Shown: positions 5,574 through 14,319, counted from the stretch's first letter. The stretch: 64,000 bases of DNA from Candidatus Levyibacteriota bacterium (GCA_029260965.1 JAJDCG010000002.1:60523-124522); one strand, 5' to 3'. Notes: generated by a model from the sequence alone, not told the origin. A program made the numbers and translations.

Positions 5574-6704
5574 ATGAATATTGTGGAAAAAGAAATAAAC
5601 AAAGATTTATTTGTAATTGATCAATATCAAAAATCTAAAAAATCCAATAAAAAAATATTATTAATTTTTGCTGTTTTGATTTTAATTATTTTTGGTGTTG
5701 GGGCGGGGTATCTGGTCCAAAGAGATAAAGACTTTTCTGTGTCAACTGAGGCGAGAGAGCAGGGCGGGGGTCCTGGTGGAGAGGTTACTACATCGTTTCC
5801 TTTTCAGGAAATGACTATCCCATATCTACGGGAAAAAGTTTATGATAGTGAACTTTCAAAGTTGGAGCAGGTTTCAACAAATGCCAACTATACTACTTAT
5901 CTGACAAGCTATGAATCAGATGGATTTGAGATAAACGGTCTTCTTCTTCGCCCTACTGGTACTGAGCCAGACGGTGGTTGGCCTGGAATTGTTTTTGTGC
6001 ATGGATATATTCCACCGACTTTATACAAGACGCTTGGGCCACAATATGATGATTATATAGATTATCTGGCAAGACAGGGTTTTGTTGTCTTCAAAATCGA
6101 CCTGCGGGGTCATGATAGCTCAGAAGGCGAGCCTGGAGGTGGATACTTCGGATCTGATTATATAGTAGATACGCTGAATGCTTATTCTGCGTTGCAAAAT
6201 ACTGATTTTGTAAATCCTGAAGCAATTGGTCTTTGGGGACATTCTATGGCAGGAAATGTCCTGATGCGAAGTTTTGCAACCAAGCCTGATATTCCTGCGG
6301 TTGTGATCTGGGCTGGGGCTGTTTATTCATACACAGACCGGGAAAAGTATGGGATCAATGACAATAGTTACAGACCCCCAGCGCCAAGTGATTCGGAGAG
6401 GCAGAGTAGAAGACAAGAGCTTTTTGAAAAGTATGGTGATGGGACAAGTCAAAATGATTTTTGGAAGATGGTTGCACCGACTAATTATCTAAGCGATCTA
6501 AAGGGAGCGATTCAGATTCATCATGCTGTCAATGATACGGTTGTAAATATCGGATATAGCAGGGATCTGAACGCGCTTTTGGATGAAACAAGTGTAGAAC
6601 ACGCGCTGATTGAGCATCAAAGTGGCGGTCACAATATAGAAGGCGCTGCATTTGTAACAGCTATGCAGGAGACAGCCGAGTTCTACAAAGAGCATTTGAG
6701 GTAA
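5574..6704 (+). CDS. Alpha/beta-hydrolase (S9 peptidase / dienelactone-hydrolase-like) with an N-terminal TM anchor
   Basis: N-terminal TM helix. Nucleophile elbow 'GLWGHSMAGNV' (GxSxG). C-terminal His/Asp region 'IHHAVNDTVV'. Confidence 0.7.
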   Translation: MNIVEKEINKDLFVIDQYQKSKKSNKKILLIFAVLILIIFGVGAGYLVQRDKDFSVSTEAREQGGGPGGEVTTSFPFQEMTIPYLREKVYDSELSKLEQVSTNANYTTYLTSYESDGFEINGLLLRPTGTEPDGGWPGIVFVHGYIPPTLYKTLGPQYDDYIDYLARQGFVVFKIDLRGHDSSEGEPGGGYFGSDYIVDTLNAYSALQNTDFVNPEAIGLWGHSMAGNVLMRSFATKPDIPAVVIWAGAVYSYTDREKYGINDNSYRPPAPSDSERQSRRQELFEKYGDGTSQNDFWKMVAPTNYLSDLKGAIQIHHAVNDTVVNIGYSRDLNALLDETSVEHALIEHQSGGHNIEGAAFVTAMQETAEFYKEHLR

Positions 6705-6821
6705 GTAATTCCCCAGATTTGAATCTATCTAGCATCTGGTGTTAGAAAATCTTTTTTCTCTAAAATCTCGTAAGAGTGCAACATTTTGCGGGAAAATAAA
6801 GCAACGTGCTACAATTAATTT

Positions 6822-7049
6822 ATGTCAATTGAGTTTTCAGAACATGCAAGAATACAGCTAAAAAGACGTGGTATTTCAGATAAATTAACTTTGAAAGCAG
6901 TTCAGGAGCCTGATGATGTTACAAGTAGTTTTCGAGGACGCAAGTTGCGGCGGGTGAGAGTTGGTGATAAAATATTGGAGGTAGTTACAAAGACAGATGG
7001 GTCGAGAATAACTGTAATTACCGCATATTATTTGGAGGAAAGTCTATGA
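6822..7049 (+). CDS. DUF4258-family protein (putative toxin of a type II toxin-antitoxin-like pair)
   Basis: 75 aa. 'MSIEFSEHARIQLKRRGISDKLTLKAVQEPD' matches the DUF4258 N-terminal consensus. Overlaps the next gene by 4 nt (ATGA). Confidence 0.6.
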   Translation: MSIEFSEHARIQLKRRGISDKLTLKAVQEPDDVTSSFRGRKLRRVRVGDKILEVVTKTDGSRITVITAYYLEESL

Positions 7050-7249
7050 AAATGAAATATGATCCCAAAGTGGATGCAGTTTATTTTGAATTAGCAAAGG
7101 GTAAGTATGAAAAAAGCAGAAAAATCTCTGATTCTATTGTCGTGGATGAGGATAAGAAAGGAAAGGTTTTGGGGATTGAGATATTGGATGCGAAAAAGAA
7201 TATAAAAGCATTTGACCCCAGAGCCAAAATATCCCTCCAGACATCTTGA
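7046..7249 (+). CDS. DUF2283-family protein (putative antitoxin partner)
   Basis: 67 aa. '..YDPKVDAVYFELAKGK...GKVLGIEILDAKK' matches the DUF2283 consensus (YD.e.DalYi.l...G.lvGIEiL.As). DUF2283/DUF4258 are recurrent neighbours. Confidence 0.6.
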   Translation: MKMKYDPKVDAVYFELAKGKYEKSRKISDSIVVDEDKKGKVLGIEILDAKKNIKAFDPRAKISLQTS

Positions 7250-7381
7250 TTATTACGTCGTCAATCAGAAAACTTCGTAAGATTACTTGCAGTTCATTTT
7301 ATATTCGTTATTATCCATAGGTTCGAAGCCGTCTAAACCCTGGTGTTAGAGTTTCTTTATAGAATCTGATATCATAACGAT

Positions 7382-7714
7382 GTGGGTATTGAACATCGTT
7401 CAGATAAAGGTCAGATTGGGAAGATGCTAAGGCCAGATAGGAATAGAATTAATTGGGCAGGCGCTGATCCTGAACTGTGGGAGGTCAAGAAAGGTTGGGA
7501 TAGAGTTTCTGAATTAAAAACTGGAGGGAGATACGAGTTTCGGGCTTCAGAAATGGTTTCTTATACAAATGCTTTTGGTGCGAATTTGCTAGTAGCTTTA
7601 GACATTATGGAAGATTTTCATGATACAGAAACATTAATTTTGGAACTGGGTGAAAGAGTGGCCTTTGCTATGAATATTGAATATCTAGATACAGCTATGA
7701 ATGATTTGGAATGA
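7382..7714 (+). CDS. Hypothetical protein (start uncertain: GTG at 7382 or ATG at 7424)
   Basis: The ORF has no recognisable motifs. It sits in the accessory-like block. Confidence 0.4.
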   Translation: MGIEHRSDKGQIGKMLRPDRNRINWAGADPELWEVKKGWDRVSELKTGGRYEFRASEMVSYTNAFGANLLVALDIMEDFHDTETLILELGERVAFAMNIEYLDTAMNDLE

Positions 7715-7740
7715 TGATAGTATTTAGTTTTCTTAATTTT

Positions 7741-7777
7741 CTGTTATACTCTTCAAGTATGAATCTATCAATCAGGA
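7741..7777 (+). repeat. Copy A of a repeated extended -10 promoter-like element followed by ATGAATCTATCAATC
   Basis: 'ctgttatactcttcaagtATGAATCTATCAATCAGGA'. TGtTATACT is an extended -10, and an ATG lies 8 nt downstream. It matches copies B (9792) and C (11207). Confidence 0.5.
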
Positions 7778-7866
7778 TGGCCAGAACACAACCCGACATT
7801 TTGTGCCATTTTCAAATAAAAATAATACTCCCAAAATCCACTTGACTTCACGTTATTTTAAATAAA

Positions 7867-8394
7867 CTAATCACTATCTAGTGCGGCTTGAAGCAAGGCT
7901 TTGTTGTACGAGTTTGTTTTTTTAATTTCATCAATAGTTGTGGGATCCAGCATTGCAACAACAACACGTAGCTCTAAATCGGCATTATATCTGTCAATGT
8001 TACTAATCGCTAAAGAAATATCTGTCTCCGTGGCTTCTTTAGTGTCTAAAATCTTATATGACTCTCCCAAAGCTATTGCATCATTCCCGATCCTCTTAAG
8101 TTGAGATTTACCTTCCTCGCAATTAAGAGCATAAGACTCCCATTCGTATTCGTAATTAACACAGTCTATATCGTTTGCAGTCGCAACCATATCTTGTCCT
8201 TCAGAAATAAAGTCTGAACCCAACTCATCAAACTGCGCTAAATCTTCCTCTTTAATCTCGTTGACATATTGTTCTGCCTCTTGTTGCGTAAGTCCCGTAT
8301 TTTCTGCAAAATTTTTAACTACATCAGCTTGACTGAATGTGAATACAGACCCTCCGATAACTAAAGTTATAATTGTCCCTATAGTTCTGTTCAT
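7867..8394 (-). CDS. Hypothetical secreted acidic protein (signal peptide)
   Basis: N-terminal 'MNRTIGTIITLVIGGSVFTFSQA' resembles a signal peptide. The rest is D/E-rich. Confidence 0.5.
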   Translation of the reverse strand: MNRTIGTIITLVIGGSVFTFSQADVVKNFAENTGLTQQEAEQYVNEIKEEDLAQFDELGSDFISEGQDMVATANDIDCVNYEYEWESYALNCEEGKSQLKRIGNDAIALGESYKILDTKEATETDISLAISNIDRYNADLELRVVVAMLDPTTIDEIKKTNSYNKALLQAALDSD

Positions 8395-8451
8395 TTAATT
8401 CACCTCCTTCCCTTAATTAAATTAATTTTTATTGAACTATGAATTCAATTT

Positions 8452-8697
8452 TTATTGTTTCTCCGACTGCTTTACTTCCCCTTCATTACACAGTCGTAAT
8501 TCCTTATCATAATCTACTTTTTTCCACTTCAGAATTACATATTTACAGTTCTTGCTGTTGTTTTCAGCTATTTGTTCGCATGTAGCATTTTTTTCTGATA
8601 ATAATGAACATTCTTGCATGTTAAGAATGCTCCAAGAAAATGAAGCAATCAAATACAAAATAAATAATCCTACTAAAATACCTAATACATTTTTCAT
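8452..8697 (-). CDS. Small secreted/anchored Cys-containing protein
   Basis: 81 aa with an N-terminal TM/signal and four Cys. It lies 1 nt downstream of the upstream gene on the minus strand. Confidence 0.45.
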   Translation of the reverse strand: MKNVLGILVGLFILYLIASFSWSILNMQECSLLSEKNATCEQIAENNSKNCKYVILKWKKVDYDKELRLCNEGEVKQSEKQ

Positions 8698-8698
8698 C

Positions 8699-9427
8699 TT
8701 AAGAGTTTCCTAAATATAAAAGATAGACGATGACGGATAGAGGTATAAAGATGTACAAAGCGATTTTCCAAGTTTTTATTAGGAAATATCTCTTGTCTTT
8801 AGTGAAAAATGCTTTACGCTTAATTTTTCGAGATATCCCATAAGGAATACCAACTATCAAAGTTAAACTAATTATTTGGAAAAAAGGTTTTGTAATAAAA
8901 TCGAATGGTGCTAAACCTTCTCTTTCAACTGGGAAAATGATTAGTGATGTTAAATTTAGAGCATAAATTGCAAGGAAGTATTTGGCAAATCTAATCTTAA
9001 GAGATGTTTCCCCTTCTGATACATCAATAATTTTATTATCTTTATCTAAGATTTCACCTACAACAATGTTTTCGCCGAAATTCGCTTTTTCTATTTTTTC
9101 CAAAAAATATGTCGGAATTAACACAAAAGGAGCTTGTAGGAAACCAACTATGCCGTAGATTACGAAAATTCCAAAGAATAGCATTATAAAGAACCATAGA
9201 AGTAGTCCACTAAGCAACAAGCTAATAATAATCCATAATAGATAAAGACCCAACAAGAAAGTGAAAATATAGTATAGGACGGCGGCTGCGCCTACAAAGA
9301 AGCCAAGAATTTTTTTCGTTTTGAATACTAATGAAAGAAAATATGCCAGCAAGTTTAAGATAAACCATACGAGAAGATAAACTAAATAAATTATTAATAC
9401 GATTAGTATGTTAGATAAAATACTCAT
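8699..9427 (-). CDS. Multi-pass membrane protein of unknown function
   Basis: About 6 predicted TM helices with a central soluble segment. ATGA overlap with the upstream gene (9424..9717). Confidence 0.5.
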   Translation of the reverse strand: MSILSNILIVLIIYLVYLLVWFILNLLAYFLSLVFKTKKILGFFVGAAAVLYYIFTFLLGLYLLWIIISLLLSGLLLWFFIMLFFGIFVIYGIVGFLQAPFVLIPTYFLEKIEKANFGENIVVGEILDKDNKIIDVSEGETSLKIRFAKYFLAIYALNLTSLIIFPVEREGLAPFDFITKPFFQIISLTLIVGIPYGISRKIKRKAFFTKDKRYFLIKTWKIALYIFIPLSVIVYLLYLGNS

Positions 9428-9717
9428 TTTCTCTTTGTTGAAAATGCTGCCATAAAGAAAAGCATTGCTATAATAAAATCAAAAAAAACCCAAGTGGATT
9501 TTGCTTGATAAATTGGGAGAATAGGATTGAATAAGAATGCTACGCCAGCAAATACTAACGCCCAACCCTGTAGTTTTGAGTTGTAGAAATTATAAGCAAC
9601 AATGGTAGAGGAAATTGAAATAGCCCAGCGGAGAAAAATATAATAGGCATATGGCCAATCTAGAATAGCAAGTAAGAGAGCGATCCCTGAAGCGATACAA
9701 AGCCATTTGATGTTCAT
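9424..9717 (-). CDS. Small multi-pass membrane protein (3 TM) of unknown function
   Basis: 97 aa and hydrophobic. First gene of a four-gene minus-strand operon. Confidence 0.5.
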   Translation of the reverse strand: MNIKWLCIASGIALLLAILDWPYAYYIFLRWAISISSTIVAYNFYNSKLQGWALVFAGVAFLFNPILPIYQAKSTWVFFDFIIAMLFFMAAFSTKRK

Positions 9718-9791
9718 TGTGTCAATACTTACTATATCATATATATTTAAATACCTCCAACAATGTGTTTCTTAAAAGATTTAATAATTAT

Positions 9792-9827
9792 CTGCTATAA
9801 TCTTCGGGCATGAATTTGTGGACGGGA
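9792..9827 (+). repeat. Copy B of the repeated extended -10 + ATGAAT element
   Basis: 'ctgctataatcttcgggcATGAATTTGTGGACGGGA'. TGCTATAAT is a perfect extended -10. It lies upstream of the 9983 gene. Confidence 0.5.
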
Positions 9828-9982
9828 TTACGATGACTGATACATTCTCTTCTGATCCGCGTTTGCTTTTCTGATAACTTCTTTTAATACCCTTTTCAAC
9901 TCAAATACAGATAGTACATTTCTACTTTTGTACCAACTAGGTTATTGTTGATTGTCTTATTTTTTGATACTCTAATTAGAGT

Positions 9983-10465
9983 ATGATTCTTAAGTTTATT
10001 TATTCTGTTTTCATAGGGGTTTTGCTAGCGACACTGATTGGGGTTGGGATCTCTGCTTTTTACAAATCTCCCAAGCCTCCTGATTATCCCACGAGGCTTA
10101 ATTTTTATGAAAAACCAATTGATGCAAGTGAATCAGCTGAGCTGAGAGTAGAACAGGAAAAATACGATAAAGTAAATAAAGATTTTCAGGAAAAAAATGA
10201 AGAATACAACCGCAATGTTTCAATAATTGCGATAATTGCAGCAATTATCACTCTGGTTGTCAGCCTTACGTTCTTCAAAAAACTGCTTGTGATAGCAGAT
10301 GGGTTACTGCTGGGTGGAGTTTTGACAGTTCTTTATGGGATTATCAGAGGTTTTGGAAGCCAAGATGAGACATTTAGATTTGTGGTCGTTCTTGTCGGAT
10401 TTTTGATATCACTTATCCTCGGTTATATAAAATTCATCAAGCCCCCAAAATCTCATAAAGCTTAA
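9983..10465 (+). CDS. Membrane protein of unknown function
   Basis: N-terminal TM, a charged coiled segment and 3 C-terminal TM helices. The ATG is preceded by 'TGATACTCT' 9 nt upstream, suggesting a leaderless transcript. Confidence 0.5.
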   Translation: MILKFIYSVFIGVLLATLIGVGISAFYKSPKPPDYPTRLNFYEKPIDASESAELRVEQEKYDKVNKDFQEKNEEYNRNVSIIAIIAAIITLVVSLTFFKKLLVIADGLLLGGVLTVLYGIIRGFGSQDETFRFVVVLVGFLISLILGYIKFIKPPKSHKA

Positions 10466-10511
10466 CAGGACAGGCTTTACGTGAAAAATATTTTGTGATA
10501 TTATTTTCATT

Positions 10512-11138
10512 GTGAGATCGGCAGAATATAATCCTGATAGAAGACGTGTGCTTGTAGGATTGGGTGCTGGTGTATTATACGCTGCTACTGCAAGTCTTAA
10601 AAAACCGCTTGATGTAGTCGCTTCATTATCGGTAGTTAATTCTCCAGATTCATTTTTTTTGCCAAATCCACAAAAGATTTCAGGTCAAGAGAGGGTGGAA
10701 AAGTTCGCTGAGCCGAGCTCAGAGCAATTACTAGATGTCCCGATGCAATATTTTCCACTACAGGGAATAATCAACGGCTCGCGTCAAATAAGAGGAGATG
10801 ATTATTTGGTTTGTACACCTACGCAGAGTTATCAAGAGATTTATGCACGTGTCTTTCCAATAATTGGGTCATGGGATCATTTTAAGGTAAGATTTGTTGA
10901 TTTTCCAGCGTATCCAGATAAGATAAAAAAAGAAGCGGAAGATAGAAATAGGAAAATTATTACGGTATTGGTTCCTTTCTCTGGTCCGATTGAAAAAATC
11001 ACACAGCTGTCTGTAGACAGGCCCCCTACGCCTGATGAGGTGGTAAGTCTTATTGCTAGAAGTAATCGGTTTCAGCTTGAGAATGGCGGAGATAATTATT
11101 TTACTGTGCTTTCTAGTAAGCAAGCAGTATTGAGTTAA
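10512..11138 (+). CDS. Hypothetical exported protein with a twin-arginine-like signal
   Basis: 'DRRRVLVGLGAGVLYAATASL' near the N-terminus. Probable GTG start. Confidence 0.5.
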   Translation: MRSAEYNPDRRRVLVGLGAGVLYAATASLKKPLDVVASLSVVNSPDSFFLPNPQKISGQERVEKFAEPSSEQLLDVPMQYFPLQGIINGSRQIRGDDYLVCTPTQSYQEIYARVFPIIGSWDHFKVRFVDFPAYPDKIKKEAEDRNRKIITVLVPFSGPIEKITQLSVDRPPTPDEVVSLIARSNRFQLENGGDNYFTVLSSKQAVLS

Positions 11139-11206
11139 TTTTCTTTGTCATAATAATATGGATAAAAAAAGAAGCAATAAATGTTTTCATAAAACTTTAA
11201 TATATC

Positions 11207-11245
11207 TGCTATAATCTTTGGATATGAATCTATCAATCGGAACAG
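11207..11245 (+). repeat. Copy C of the repeated extended -10 + ATGAATCTATCAATCGGA element
   Basis: 'ctgctataatctttggatATGAATCTATCAATCGGAACA'. It shares a ~36-nt core with copy A. It lies between convergent genes. Confidence 0.5.
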
Positions 11246-11368
11246 ATCGAGTCAGAATCAACTTAATTATTTAGGCTCAAATAAAGAAAAAAGTTATCTA
11301 ATTCCTTTTGAGTTAATTATTGATTTACCTCTTTCCAAATTTATTCCAAAATTTCTGATCAAACACGG

Positions 11369-12076
11369 CTAGAGCTCATTAAGAATTCCTCCATAGTTAT
11401 TTGGAGTGTATTTGTCTCCGATAAATATTGGATAAGCAGGACTTTTTACTCCCATTTTATCTGCGAGACTTTTATTTATTGGATTGAATGCTTTTAAGTT
11501 TTTACTCGGTAAATTGAGTTTATTTTTATCTTCAAGAGTCATTCTATATACAAAACGGAATTTTTTTACTTTTCTGGCAAGCGGAATTTCATTCATCTTT
11601 GAAAGTTTAAAAATACGCTTATACCATAAGTTTGCATTCATAAGTTTACTTGCAAGGCTTATTTCAATTGAAACACAATTAGAGGTGTATTTATTTATGC
11701 AATCATAGTCGGCAATAATTACTTTGTTTAAACCAAAATAAGAAGCAGTGTCATACAGTTTTTTGTCTGCAAGATCTCCGACAAAAACACAATCATTATC
11801 TGGACAATGTGTGTTATGAAAATCAAAGACAAGATCGTATTTTTTGCAAAGATTTAATAAATATGATGCGCGTTTCTGTTCATAAGATTTACCTTGAGAA
11901 TTGCCGGGAAAAGAACGATTTAAATCATCTTTTATAAACCGGCAATTATCTTTAACCGCGTTTTCATTTGCTAATACAACATCGATATTTTCAATTCTCT
12001 TTTCTTGAAATAATCGCACCAACTCAATACCTAGAGGTTCGTTTCCGTGCATGCCACCAATTACTAATATCTTCAT
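11369..12076 (-). CDS. Succinylglutamate desuccinylase/aspartoacylase (AstE/AspA) family zinc hydrolase
   Basis: 'MKILVIGGMHGNEPLG' matches the GxHGNE metal-binding signature of PF04952. ATGA overlap with the upstream gene. Confidence 0.75.
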   Translation of the reverse strand: MKILVIGGMHGNEPLGIELVRLFQEKRIENIDVVLANENAVKDNCRFIKDDLNRSFPGNSQGKSYEQKRASYLLNLCKKYDLVFDFHNTHCPDNDCVFVGDLADKKLYDTASYFGLNKVIIADYDCINKYTSNCVSIEISLASKLMNANLWYKRIFKLSKMNEIPLARKVKKFRFVYRMTLEDKNKLNLPSKNLKAFNPINKSLADKMGVKSPAYPIFIGDKYTPNNYGGILNEL

Positions 12077-12741
12077 TTTTGCCCTCCCCAGTTGATAACT
12101 ACGAAATCTCTTCTGTCAGGAACTTCAATATTTCTTTCATAAACTATTGCTTGATCTCCAAAGTCTCTTGTAGGCGCTACTATCATTTGAGAAGCAATTG
12201 TTCGATATACTAATTTATTTGCCTGCAACTCTCTTGCCAATCCAATACACATTCCGCTAAAGTTTTGAAGATTGCCCCTCGGTTTCTTTACACGGTCTGC
12301 AAACACTTCATCAAGCCACATTATAGGTTCTGTTCCCAATTTTTCCATCATCCAAGAGGACATCGCTGGAACATCAGGATATCGTTCTTCTGCAATTCTA
12401 TAAGGAGTCTCAAGCCATGCAAGAGCAAACAAAGTAGCTCCGACCTCTCCCTTTTCCATATACCAAGCTGTAGGACGCGTTTTTGCAATCATATCAAATT
12501 TACTGACAAGTTCTCCTTGCTCATAAGCAGTCTTTATTGGACAATTTCCACACATCTCACAATTTGCACCAATTGGCAGAGAAGAAAATCCTCCTGCACA
12601 ACGTTGGACTGAAGAGTAGTCCACGCACTTACTTACCTCAAGCCAAGGCTCTCCTGCGAATGCAGCCTGATAGACAGGAACGACCTCGTCATAAAGGCTT
12701 TTAATCTCATTTGGTTTATAAAAATTTCCAAGCTCTTTCAT
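12073..12741 (-). CDS. Cys-rich hypothetical protein (CxxCxxC cluster)
   Basis: 222 aa with 'SSVQRCAGGFSSLPIGANCEMCGNCP'. No family recognised. GC content looks somewhat higher than the surroundings. Translationally coupled to the AstE/AspA-like gene. Confidence 0.55.
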   Translation of the reverse strand: MKELGNFYKPNEIKSLYDEVVPVYQAAFAGEPWLEVSKCVDYSSVQRCAGGFSSLPIGANCEMCGNCPIKTAYEQGELVSKFDMIAKTRPTAWYMEKGEVGATLFALAWLETPYRIAEERYPDVPAMSSWMMEKLGTEPIMWLDEVFADRVKKPRGNLQNFSGMCIGLARELQANKLVYRTIASQMIVAPTRDFGDQAIVYERNIEVPDRRDFVVINWGGQK

Positions 12742-12810
12742 AATTGTTTTGCCACAAAAAAACCAGCTTTTTCGCTAAACTTAATTCACTTAATGTAAAT
12801 TAGTTAGCTA

Positions 12811-13131
12811 TTAGCTGGCTAAATTGTGATGATTTATTAAACTTATTGCTTCTTTGTATCCATTACATCCGTTTTGCAACCATTCACTTATTCGAGCAAC
12901 TGTTCTGCTACTTAATTTTGTTTCAGTAGTAATTTTTTCATATTTTTCTCCACGGGAAAGCATTTTTGCAGCCTCAAGTCTTGCTGCAATTTCAATGATT
13001 TCTTTCTCGGTCATAACGTCTCTTAAAAAGTTTTGCATTGTTTTTACATCAGAAATCTCACACACAACTTGTGCGAGTTGTTTAGTGTTCTTTTCTGTCC
13101 AAACATTTTTCATATTTAAATACTTTACCAT
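12811..13131 (-). CDS. TrpR-like YerC/YecD-family DNA-binding protein
   Basis: About 100 aa. '...EKEIIEIAARLEAAKMLSRGEKYEKITTETKLSSRTVARISEWLQNG' has the Trp-repressor-like HTH signature. The true start may be the internal Met (MKNVW). Confidence 0.65.
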   Translation of the reverse strand: MVKYLNMKNVWTEKNTKQLAQVVCEISDVKTMQNFLRDVMTEKEIIEIAARLEAAKMLSRGEKYEKITTETKLSSRTVARISEWLQNGCNGYKEAISLINHHNLAS

Positions 13132-13215
13132 AGTAAAGTGAGTATGTCAAGTTTATTTAACAGGGACTTAGCTAACCTTTCTTGCTATAATAGCCTTTAT
13201 GAAAGGATGTCGAGT

Positions 13216-14319
13216 ATGAACTTGAGTGTCGGGATTGTTGGGCTTCCTAATATTGGAAAATCTACATTGTTTAACGCGCTTCTCAAAAAACAGCAAGCTC
13301 TTGCTGCCAATTATCCATTTGCAACAATTGAGCCAAATGTCGGAGTAGTTCCCGTGCCAGATGCCCGACTGGAGGCGCTAGCAGAAATCACAAAGACTGA
13401 GGAAAAAATGAGTGAGCTGCCGCCAATAAAGCCTGCAACAGTTGAGTTTTATGATATCGCAGGTCTTGTCAAGGGCGCCAGTACTGGAGCAGGACTGGGG
13501 AATAAATTTTTATCTCACATCCGTGAGGTGTCAGTGATTGCCCATGTGGTTCGAGCATTTGAGGATCCTGATGTGATCAAAGAGGGAGCAGTTGATCCAA
13601 AATCAGATTATGAAGTGATAAATGCGGAATTGATCATTGCAGATTTACAGACACTTGAAAATGTAAATTTGAAAAAGCATGAATCAGAAATCAAAAATTA
13701 TAAAGAAGTGATAGAAAGACTGAAAGAAGCCCTGAACAAGGGCATATCTGCAAGAGATGTTGATTTGTCAGATGAGGAAAGAGATGCAGTAAGAGAGCTT
13801 TTTCTTTTATCAAGCAAACCTGAGATAACGGTTCTGAATCTGTCTGAGGATCAGTATACCCCTCAGGGAATTGATGAAATGGTGAATGAATATGCTAGGG
13901 GATTGGGTATTGATGCTGAAAACATAGTCGCCATTTCTGCCAGGATAGAGTCAGAGCTGGCCTCTCTATCAGAGGAGGAGCAGAAAGAATATCTGAAAGA
14001 TTTAGGTTTGGATCGATCAGGACTGGAGAGATTGATTCAGAAAGCTTATAAAAAGCTTGGTTTGATTTCATTTTTGACAGCAGGGGAGAAGGAAGTTCGT
14101 GCTTGGACTACTCGGCTCGGCGCAACAGCGCCTGAGGCAGCAGGGGAGATACATACTGATTTTACCAAAAAATTTATAAAGGCAGAGGTTGTGGGATTTG
14201 ATGATTTTGAAGAAAACGGGGGTTGGAAAGGAGCAAGAGAAAAAGGCAAAGCGCGTCTTGAGGGGAAAGACTATGTCATGAAAGACGGCGACGTAGTGGA
14301 GTTCAAAATCGGGAGTTGA
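13216..14319 (+). CDS. ychF: Ribosome-binding ATPase YchF (Obg-family GTPase)
   Basis: 'MNLSVGIVGLPNIGKSTLFNAL' is a P-loop, followed by a TGS domain. RBS 'AAAGGA' lies 9 nt upstream of ATG 13216. The ORF-track N-terminal extension was discarded. Confidence 0.9.
   Translation: MNLSVGIVGLPNIGKSTLFNALLKKQQALAANYPFATIEPNVGVVPVPDARLEALAEITKTEEKMSELPPIKPATVEFYDIAGLVKGASTGAGLGNKFLSHIREVSVIAHVVRAFEDPDVIKEGAVDPKSDYEVINAELIIADLQTLENVNLKKHESEIKNYKEVIERLKEALNKGISARDVDLSDEERDAVRELFLLSSKPEITVLNLSEDQYTPQGIDEMVNEYARGLGIDAENIVAISARIESELASLSEEEQKEYLKDLGLDRSGLERLIQKAYKKLGLISFLTAGEKEVRAWTTRLGATAPEAAGEIHTDFTKKFIKAEVVGFDDFEENGGWKGAREKGKARLEGKDYVMKDGDVVEFKIGS

Follow-up and report, generated by a model that had tools for sequence, protein, structure and literature searches.

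The stretch of DNA analysed here (the window) is a 64,000-nucleotide (nt) piece of Candidatus Levyibacteriota bacterium (GCA_029260965.1 JAJDCG010000002.1:60523-124522), chromosomal DNA of an uncultured bacterium with ~37% G+C, and the homologs of its YchF protein are labelled Levybacteria or Patescibacteria by their sources. The element in question is a short repeat, present in three copies named A, B and C upstream of ychF, the gene for a YchF/Ola1-type GTPase. The locus has genes for a histidine kinase, a response regulator, a zinc-ribbon protein and an alpha/beta hydrolase, followed by a short sequence named E, block 0, copy A, block 1, copy B, block 2, copy C, block 3, the real ychF promoter and start (D) with ychF itself, and then S6-SSB-S18 (Table 1). 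From the hydrolase gene to the real ychF there are ~6.5 kilobases (kb), made up of four blocks (E-A, A-B, B-C and C-D) with about 13 called open reading frames (ORFs), and the G+C content of these blocks is 0.32-0.36 versus 0.38-0.43 in the flanks.

A degenerate 24-nt core (CTGYTATAMTCTTYRRRYATGAAT) has three matches in the window, at 7741, 9792 and 11206, all on the plus strand, and none in 100 dinucleotide shuffles, which bears out the initial annotation in its claim of three copies of an 'extended -10' element at gene-block boundaries. The direct copies span 7740-7777, 9791-9827 and 11205-11243 (chance expectation 0); the core match of C begins at 11206 rather than 11207, the position first given. 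In a repeat search of the window they form one repeat family of 34 nt with 68-82% identity. Over positions -20..+20 around the ATG, 30/40 positions are identical between A and C, 29/40 between B and C and 25/40 between A and B (63-75%), with ATGAATCTATCAATC exactly common to A and C and ~25 nt more shared by B and C further upstream. Past +20 there is no significant similarity among the three, and no further copy was found in the 64-kb window apart from a short relative at 6719.

Each copy has an extended -10 box (TGTTATACT in A, TGCTATAAT in B and C) with an ATG 8 nt 3' of it, an arrangement of the leaderless type, in which a TGnTATAAT box lies 5-9 nt 5' of the start codon without a Shine-Dalgarno sequence. 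As annotated, these ATGs open tiny ORFs only, of 28, 8 and 16 amino acids (aa) in A, B and C respectively, and the gene context is also as described, with A and C lying between convergent genes and B between divergent genes.

Scans of public collections with the motif gave chance matches only. The 24-nt core had 26 scattered single matches in a set with one genome per GTDB species, all unrelated on inspection, a 28-nt version had one chance match in JGI metagenomes, and the core, a 16-mer and the module pattern of copy C (see below) had chance matches only in IMG/VR. Relatives (referred to as L059, L065, L066, L068, L070 and L071 where they need to be told apart) were subsequently reached via neighbouring proteins. 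The junction preceding ychF, in its compact form as in L065 and L070, consists of TGCTATAAT, 6-8 nt, and then ATGAAYYTNTCNRTCGG, which encodes MNLS[IV]G. The conserved ATGAATCTATCAATCRG of the repeat is the start of ychF (MNLS[IV]G...), the real gene lying 2 kb downstream at 13216 and starting with ATGAACTTGAGTGTCGGGATT. By this comparison copies A-C are truncated copies of the junction that precedes ychF in relatives, covering roughly -45 to +20/+35. The earlier reading of the repeat had the promoter architecture of a leaderless transcript, the position at block boundaries and the option of a relic right; what it missed was the link of the conserved sequence to the ychF start.

In L059, which has an AstE-like protein 74% identical to that of the window, blastn with the elements matched two places. 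One is the true ychF start, ...CCTGCTATAATagcttctatgaaaggatgtcaagtATGAATCTATCAGTCGGGATAGTGGGA, encoding MNLSVGIVGLPNVGKST, and the other is a pseudo-copy (C') on the downstream side of astE, where copy C lies in the window. Relic A matches the real ychF start region of L059 at 18/18 positions, and the core of relic B resembles the window's own ychF start minus 1 nt. Real ychF starts were also identified in L065 (CTGCTATAATCacaattATGAATTTATCTATCGGTATTGTTGGG), whose YchF is the closest relative of the window's at 91% identity, and in L070 (CTGCTATAATtctttcATGAATCTTTCGATTGGCATAGTTGGA), whose YchF is 76% identical. A profile made from the real junctions of L065 and L070 only had C (E-value 0.003), A, D and B, in that order, as its top four hits in the window, and with a seven-sequence profile the E-values were 6e-10 for A, 6e-10 for B and 3e-10 for C. 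Similarity to ychF stops at about +20 to +35 in the copies, and the sequence that follows +20 in A, B, C and E was tested and is not derived from the ychF body. Within their first six codons, the differences among the copies are synonymous when read in frame with ychF, which fits an origin from functional ychF alleles.

As the real starts of L065 and L070 have the compact form, the compact leaderless-type arrangement of A-C is the native ychF promoter and start of this clade. In L065 (~10034-10063) and L070 (~2121-2139) ychF is itself of the leaderless type, with the -10 box 6-7 nt before the ATG. In the window (13183-13218) and in L059, a 24-nt leader with AAAGGATG precedes ychF. This is an essential-type gene, and its regulatory architecture is swapped exactly at the start codon between genomes. 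The YchF of L059 (7650-8855, minus strand) also has a mid-protein insertion of ~36 residues relative to that of the window.

The affinities of the window sequence switch at the real ychF ATG. Before the ATG (-45..-1) its identity is 86% with L059 and 47% with L065, whereas within the gene (+19..+60) the figures are 71% with L059 and 88% with L065. At the protein level the window's YchF is 62% identical to that of L059, and the block 3 proteins are 90% (TrpR-like), 77% (222-aa) and 75% (AstE-like) identical to their L059 counterparts. From these identities, the window's ychF has an L065-like body that is joined at its ATG to a promoter and leader of the L059 kind, in other words to a putative replacement 5' end. 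Copy C is a mosaic also, in that a compact promoter, as found at the real ychF of L065 and L070, is followed by downstream DNA ~75% identical to L059. Given the switch at the ATG and this mosaic, C and D would be the pair of products that a single reciprocal crossover at the ATG, or beside it, should leave, with a resident ychF with a compact promoter and incoming DNA with an L059-type junction as its partners. Because the sequence shared at the crossover is short and imperfect, site-specific or illegitimate recombination would be favoured over RecA-dependent recombination.

An unoccupied site is present in L070, where the hydrolase stop is 20 nt from the real ychF ATG with nothing between them. 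In the window the same hydrolase (56% identical to that of L070) is followed, 14 nt past its stop, by TTGAATCTATC. The partial relative that the initial annotation placed at 6718 is a real occurrence of a 10-mer (TGAATCTATC) found four times in the window versus 0.34 expected, and its position behind the hydrolase gene is meaningful. The sequence at 6719-6729 is probably a fourth and oldest relic (E) of a ychF start; it was not detected by the nhmmer profile and its support is positional. A, B and C, and probably E too, are direct repeats in the orientation of ychF that match real ychF starts. The region upstream of ychF is variable, with one gene in L066 and four in L065 versus the about 13 called ORFs of the window, and downstream of ychF the order S6-SSB-S18-CtpB-like is conserved among relatives.

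We consider A-C to be most probably scars that one insertion after another has left at the start codon of ychF, that is att-like, displaced former promoters. Starting from the ancestral order hydrolase-ychF, as in L070, reciprocal recombination at the start codon of ychF, or beside it, would have added blocks of 1-2 kb time after time, in the manner of a Campbell-type integration. Each insertion would strand the previous promoter and first codons across the new block (the attL position), and the incoming DNA would put a new promoter before the intact ychF (the attR position). Repetition would produce the stack of relics and blocks described above, from the hydrolase gene to D-ychF, with the oldest and most decayed relic farthest from ychF. 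With insertion always at the functional copy, every relic would once have been the working ychF promoter. Decay does rise with distance from ychF, as E is without a -10 box, A has two changes (TGTTATACT) and the TGCTATAAT of both B and C is perfect; a past as working promoters would explain both the good -10 boxes and the distance-dependent decay. The relics still resemble working promoters, and B, the only relic placed as an operon promoter, facing the block 2 genes, could drive block 2, with A and C capable only of short or antisense read-through.

Similar arrangements occur in relatives. L066 has a tandem relic (TGATATAATTCTTTCATGAATCTTTCCATAG, 9942-10003) 48 nt before its real ychF ATG, nearly identical to the real start of L070, which an insertion since excised or deleted could have left behind as a scar. 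In L068, two full copies flank an 8-kb block (HTH_17-histidine kinase, VWA, AAA_5) and there is a third, partial copy.

The stretch that runs from C to the stop of astE is conserved between the window and L059, and the frame TAT GAA TCT ATC is open in both; this C-type module contains the remnant of a small gene designated orfM. Between the window and L059 its 3' half has mostly synonymous-type changes and a 3-nt indel. The orfM family comprises proteins P0241-P0246, and its ORFs start within the ychF-derived core, in a frame other than that of ychF. One 40-aa relative was found among 1.8 billion representative proteins and led to L068, where there are three orfM copies within 10 kb, and a profile search identified longer members of 57-75 aa, one of them from the Levybacteria metagenome-assembled genome (MAG) L071, with the motif ...GQSGNQLN..RIPYELIIELPKPRYERNI..RD.LGRI.HS.PP. 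The window and L059 keep only the first ~40 orfM codons and the C-terminus diverges; the stop of the window copy (11370-11372) overlaps the astE stop on the opposite strand. OrfM has no Pfam or PHROG match, and its AlphaFold2 model has no confident fold (predicted local distance difference test, pLDDT, 57; predicted template-modelling score, pTM, 0.21). In every copy that retains the ychF-derived core, orfM is joined to the core at the same point, and therefore the core-retaining copies descend from one fusion event. It is possible that orfM is a gene of an element's end, with the stranded ychF promoter driving its expression, or that it is nothing.

Several points weigh against serial insertion. 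Three intact-looking relics and a decayed E are found in one genome only and no close strain without one of the blocks was found, so the order of the insertions is not demonstrated. Relic E itself is read from 11 nt and their position, and the perfect -10 boxes of B and C could instead reflect present-day selection for promoter function. Block 3 is a lineage-wide conserved operon (its AstE-like protein has 609 homologs) rather than an obvious mobile cargo. Furthermore, C' of L059 has a long-leader sequence upstream of the core whereas C of the window is compact, which makes them something other than simple orthologues and requires further events to be assumed. There is also the matter of the enzyme. 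No integrase, resolvase or transposase was identified with Pfam in the blocks or the first 37 kb of the window, nor in the gene tables of L068 or L071, and PADLOC and NCBIfam found no recombinase among the block proteins. Taken over the blocks and orfM together, Pfam, PADLOC, NCBIfam and PHROGs returned no recombinase, defence or phage function. Because no recombinase was found, the recombination mechanism is inferred.

Among the alternatives, one is that the copies are functional paralogous promoters under selection, which would produce short, leaderless RNAs, peptides, or transcripts antisense to the 3' ends of the convergent genes. Their extended -10 boxes are intact and the ATG spacing is the same in all three, the block 2 genes begin 170 nt downstream of B and share its strand, and the -10-to-ATG spacer varies between flanking parts that are conserved, all of which would suit such a role. 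The products speak otherwise, as the three peptides are unrelated after residue 5 and nothing significantly similar follows +20. The small-RNA or antisense-RNA reading offered by the initial annotation likewise found no backing. Rfam gave only a tRNA at the gathering threshold and nothing credible at E<=5, folds of single sequences on both strands were not significant (z-scores -0.9 to +1.5), and an alignment of the C-type module from three genomes had a consensus energy of -2.5 kcal/mol with no covariation term and no conserved structure. Equivalents in other genomes have moreover lost the -10 box or the ATG (C' of L059 has CATAAA and TTG; L071 is without a -10), and relic E is decayed. Selected promoters are for these reasons an unlikely explanation of the copies.

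Local tandem duplication of the hydrolase-ychF junction, followed by deletions and shuffling, would require no foreign DNA and no dedicated site, and it agrees with the lack of a recombinase and with the direct orientation of all copies and their clustering within 6.5 kb. Random end-points should vary, yet every copy ends at a similar short distance into ychF (+20 to +35). No block is related to another or to the flanks, and the change of affinity at the ATG, together with the discordance between YchF and block 3, implies DNA from a different lineage. In L068, moreover, these repeats surround an 8-kb block of quite another kind, so that we give duplication little credence, somewhat less than selected promoters. 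The least probable alternative by some way is that the repeat is the head of a small protein gene family, orfM (35-75 aa), which starts with ychF-derived sequence and of which A and B are decayed copies. orfM-like ORFs are indeed open at copy C of the window and in L059 and L071, with three more in L068, the longer members share a motif, and the 3' half has 3-nt indels and synonymous-type changes. A and B, however, were tested and have no detectable orfM sequence past +20, the window and L059 copies are without a canonical start and diverge after ~40 codons, one L068 copy has a nonsense codon, and there is neither a Pfam or PHROG hit nor a good model (pLDDT 57). The promoter and the homology on the hydrolase side would also be left unexplained.

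Other element classes were considered as well. The suggestion in the initial annotation of relics of a small mobile element survives as regards the relics; the repeat is not a self-contained small mobile element, as it has no terminal inverted repeats and no copies in the scanned collections. A miniature inverted-repeat transposable element or an insertion-sequence end was rejected, there being no inverted-repeat partner and only three copies and E, all in one 6.5-kb region. Integron attC sites were rejected on account of the missing palindromic structure and integrase. A PmrA-like or TrpR-operator reading of the AT-rich upstream part was dropped as it had no repeat-unit match.

The coordinates of the locus and of the orfM copies are given in Table 1.

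Table 1. Features between the hydrolase gene and ychF in the window, with orfM copies in relatives (coordinates are those of the sequence named)
Feature	Coordinates	Strand	Basis
Alpha/beta hydrolase gene	5574..6704	+	Pfam Hydrolase_4, Peptidase_S9, Peptidase_S15; 56% identical to L070 hydrolase
Relic E, probable decayed ychF start TTGAATCTATC, -10 box lost	6719..6729	+	10-mer enrichment and position
Block 0: DUF4258/DUF2283 pair (6822-7249), 110-aa ORF (7382-7714)	6730..7739	.	Pfam; G+C 0.361
Relic A: TGTTATACT 7742-7750, 8 nt, ATGAATCTATCAATCAGG from 7759	7729..7781	+	Core match, profiles, 18/18 match to L059
Block 1: four genes (175 aa, 81 aa, 242-aa membrane protein, DUF6804)	7782..9778	-	G+C 0.324, lowest of the region
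Relic B: TGCTATAAT 9793-9801, 8 nt, ATGAATTTGTGGACGGGATT from 9810	9779..9831	+	Core match, profiles
Block 2: 160-aa membrane protein (9983-10465), 208-aa protein with twin-arginine translocation (TAT)-like N-terminus (10512-11138)	9832..11196	+	
Relic C: TGCTATAAT 11207-11215, 8 nt, ATGAATCTATCAATCGGAAC from 11224	11197..11245	+	Core match, both profiles
C-type module: orfM remnant (window copy) reading through relic C in another frame	11211..11372	+	~75% DNA identity to L059
Block 3: AstE/AspA-like, 222-aa and YerC/TrpR-like genes	11369..13131	-	Operon conserved in lineage
D: real ychF promoter TGCTATAAT 13183-13191, 24-nt leader with AAAGGATG, start ATGAACTTGAGTGTCGGGATT from 13216	13183..13240	+	
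ychF (YchF/Ola1-type GTPase)	13216..14319	+	Pfam MMR_HSR1, YchF-GTPase_C; homologs
orfM copy, L059	~10790-10940	-	
orfM copies, L068	983-1168, 8992-9099, ~10070-10240		
orfM copy, L071	10001-10225		

The genes of the blocks have a number of features of their own. In an exact-protein look-up, identical proteins of the block genes were found only in sequencing run SRR15505512, with one also under an NCBI assembly. In block 0 an 11-nt direct repeat (CTGGTGTTAGA, 6736-6746 and 7340-7350) brackets the DUF4258/DUF2283 pair, and this could be chance or the target duplication of a small insertion. The DUF6804 gene of block 1 (9424-9717) is followed by the 242-aa ORF (8699-9427, minus strand), and L071 has the like at 6981-8198, with a 243-aa ORF, 2-3 kb upstream of its orfM; for this pair, similarity between the window and L071 is detectable only between the DUF6804 genes, at ~47-50% identity. 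In block 2, the 208-aa protein has the twin-arginine-like sequence RRRVLVGLGAG, and L065 has a homolog with 29% identity in the variable stretch that precedes its ychF. The TrpR/YerC-like, 222-aa and AstE/AspA-like operon of block 3 has different neighbour genes in different genomes (compared with L059, L060 and L063). Because its similarity ranking disagrees with that of YchF, the comparison suggests transfer of this operon between lineages.

Integrative elements that restore the gene into which they insert offer the closest parallels to serial insertion at ychF. In dusA islands, the repeats are reported to copy the 5' end of the target, with a replacement promoter and N-terminus supplied and the old start left on the other side (PMC8409611, citing SXT/prfC). 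The integrative and conjugative elements of the SXT/R391 group in prfC and dusA islands such as IMEVchUSA3 are like the present locus in that direct repeats copy the 5' end of the target gene, which is kept intact by an incoming promoter and first codons as the old start is stranded; here the counterpart is D, with its L059-like promoter on an L065-like ychF body. They differ in their size, 20-100 kb versus 1-2 kb, and in that the locus described here has no recognisable integrase or recombination directionality factor, has four blocks stacked and lies in a Patescibacteria MAG. Tandem arrays at one att site are known for SGI1 (PMC2297512), and a pneumococcal satellite prophage is reported to integrate upstream of ychF in Streptococcus pneumoniae (PMC10383233). 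In such tandem accretion of islands or satellites, as here, several att-like repeats of the same orientation separate segments beside one conserved gene. The arrays, however, consist of integrase-encoding elements with near-identical repeats, whereas the repeats here have 63-75% identity over -20..+20 and there are no mobility genes in the blocks.

Integron cassette arrays share with the locus small blocks that are promoter-less or of few genes, a repeated site and a fixed, promoter-bearing platform. Unlike them, it has no IntI gene and no attC-like imperfect palindromes, the orientation of its blocks is mixed and the repeat comes from the start of a housekeeping gene. Promoters of leaderless mRNAs are comparable in having TGCTATAAT 6-8 nt before the ATG and no Shine-Dalgarno sequence, as in the ychF of L065 and L070 and in relics A-C. 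They differ in that the ATG of A-C opens only 8-28 codons. By analogy the locus would work like the integrative elements, but it is not classed as a member because no integrase is detectable and the blocks are only 1-2 kb. A further and rather doubtful possibility is that the ychF start is an integrase-free cassette capture platform in Levybacteria-like Patescibacteria, with serial site-specific crossovers at or near TATGAA, each bringing a replacement promoter and pushing the old one outward; the recombinase would then be unrecognised or act in trans, and orfM, which adjoins the core in at least four genomes, would possibly be part of the machinery.

Read as the product of serial insertion, an unexplained motif becomes a record of genome history, in which the stacked, displaced ychF promoters would serve to date four insertions that followed one another at a single hotspot and to mark their limits. 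This concerns the candidate-phyla-radiation bacteria, a group in which little is known of mobile elements and of the ways in which genes are gained. The comparison also predicts that the type of ychF promoter varies in the clade, being leaderless in some genomes and having a Shine-Dalgarno leader in others. If the insertions are indeed site-specific without a known integrase, they would represent an undescribed recombination system; otherwise the relics would be ordinary att-like scars.

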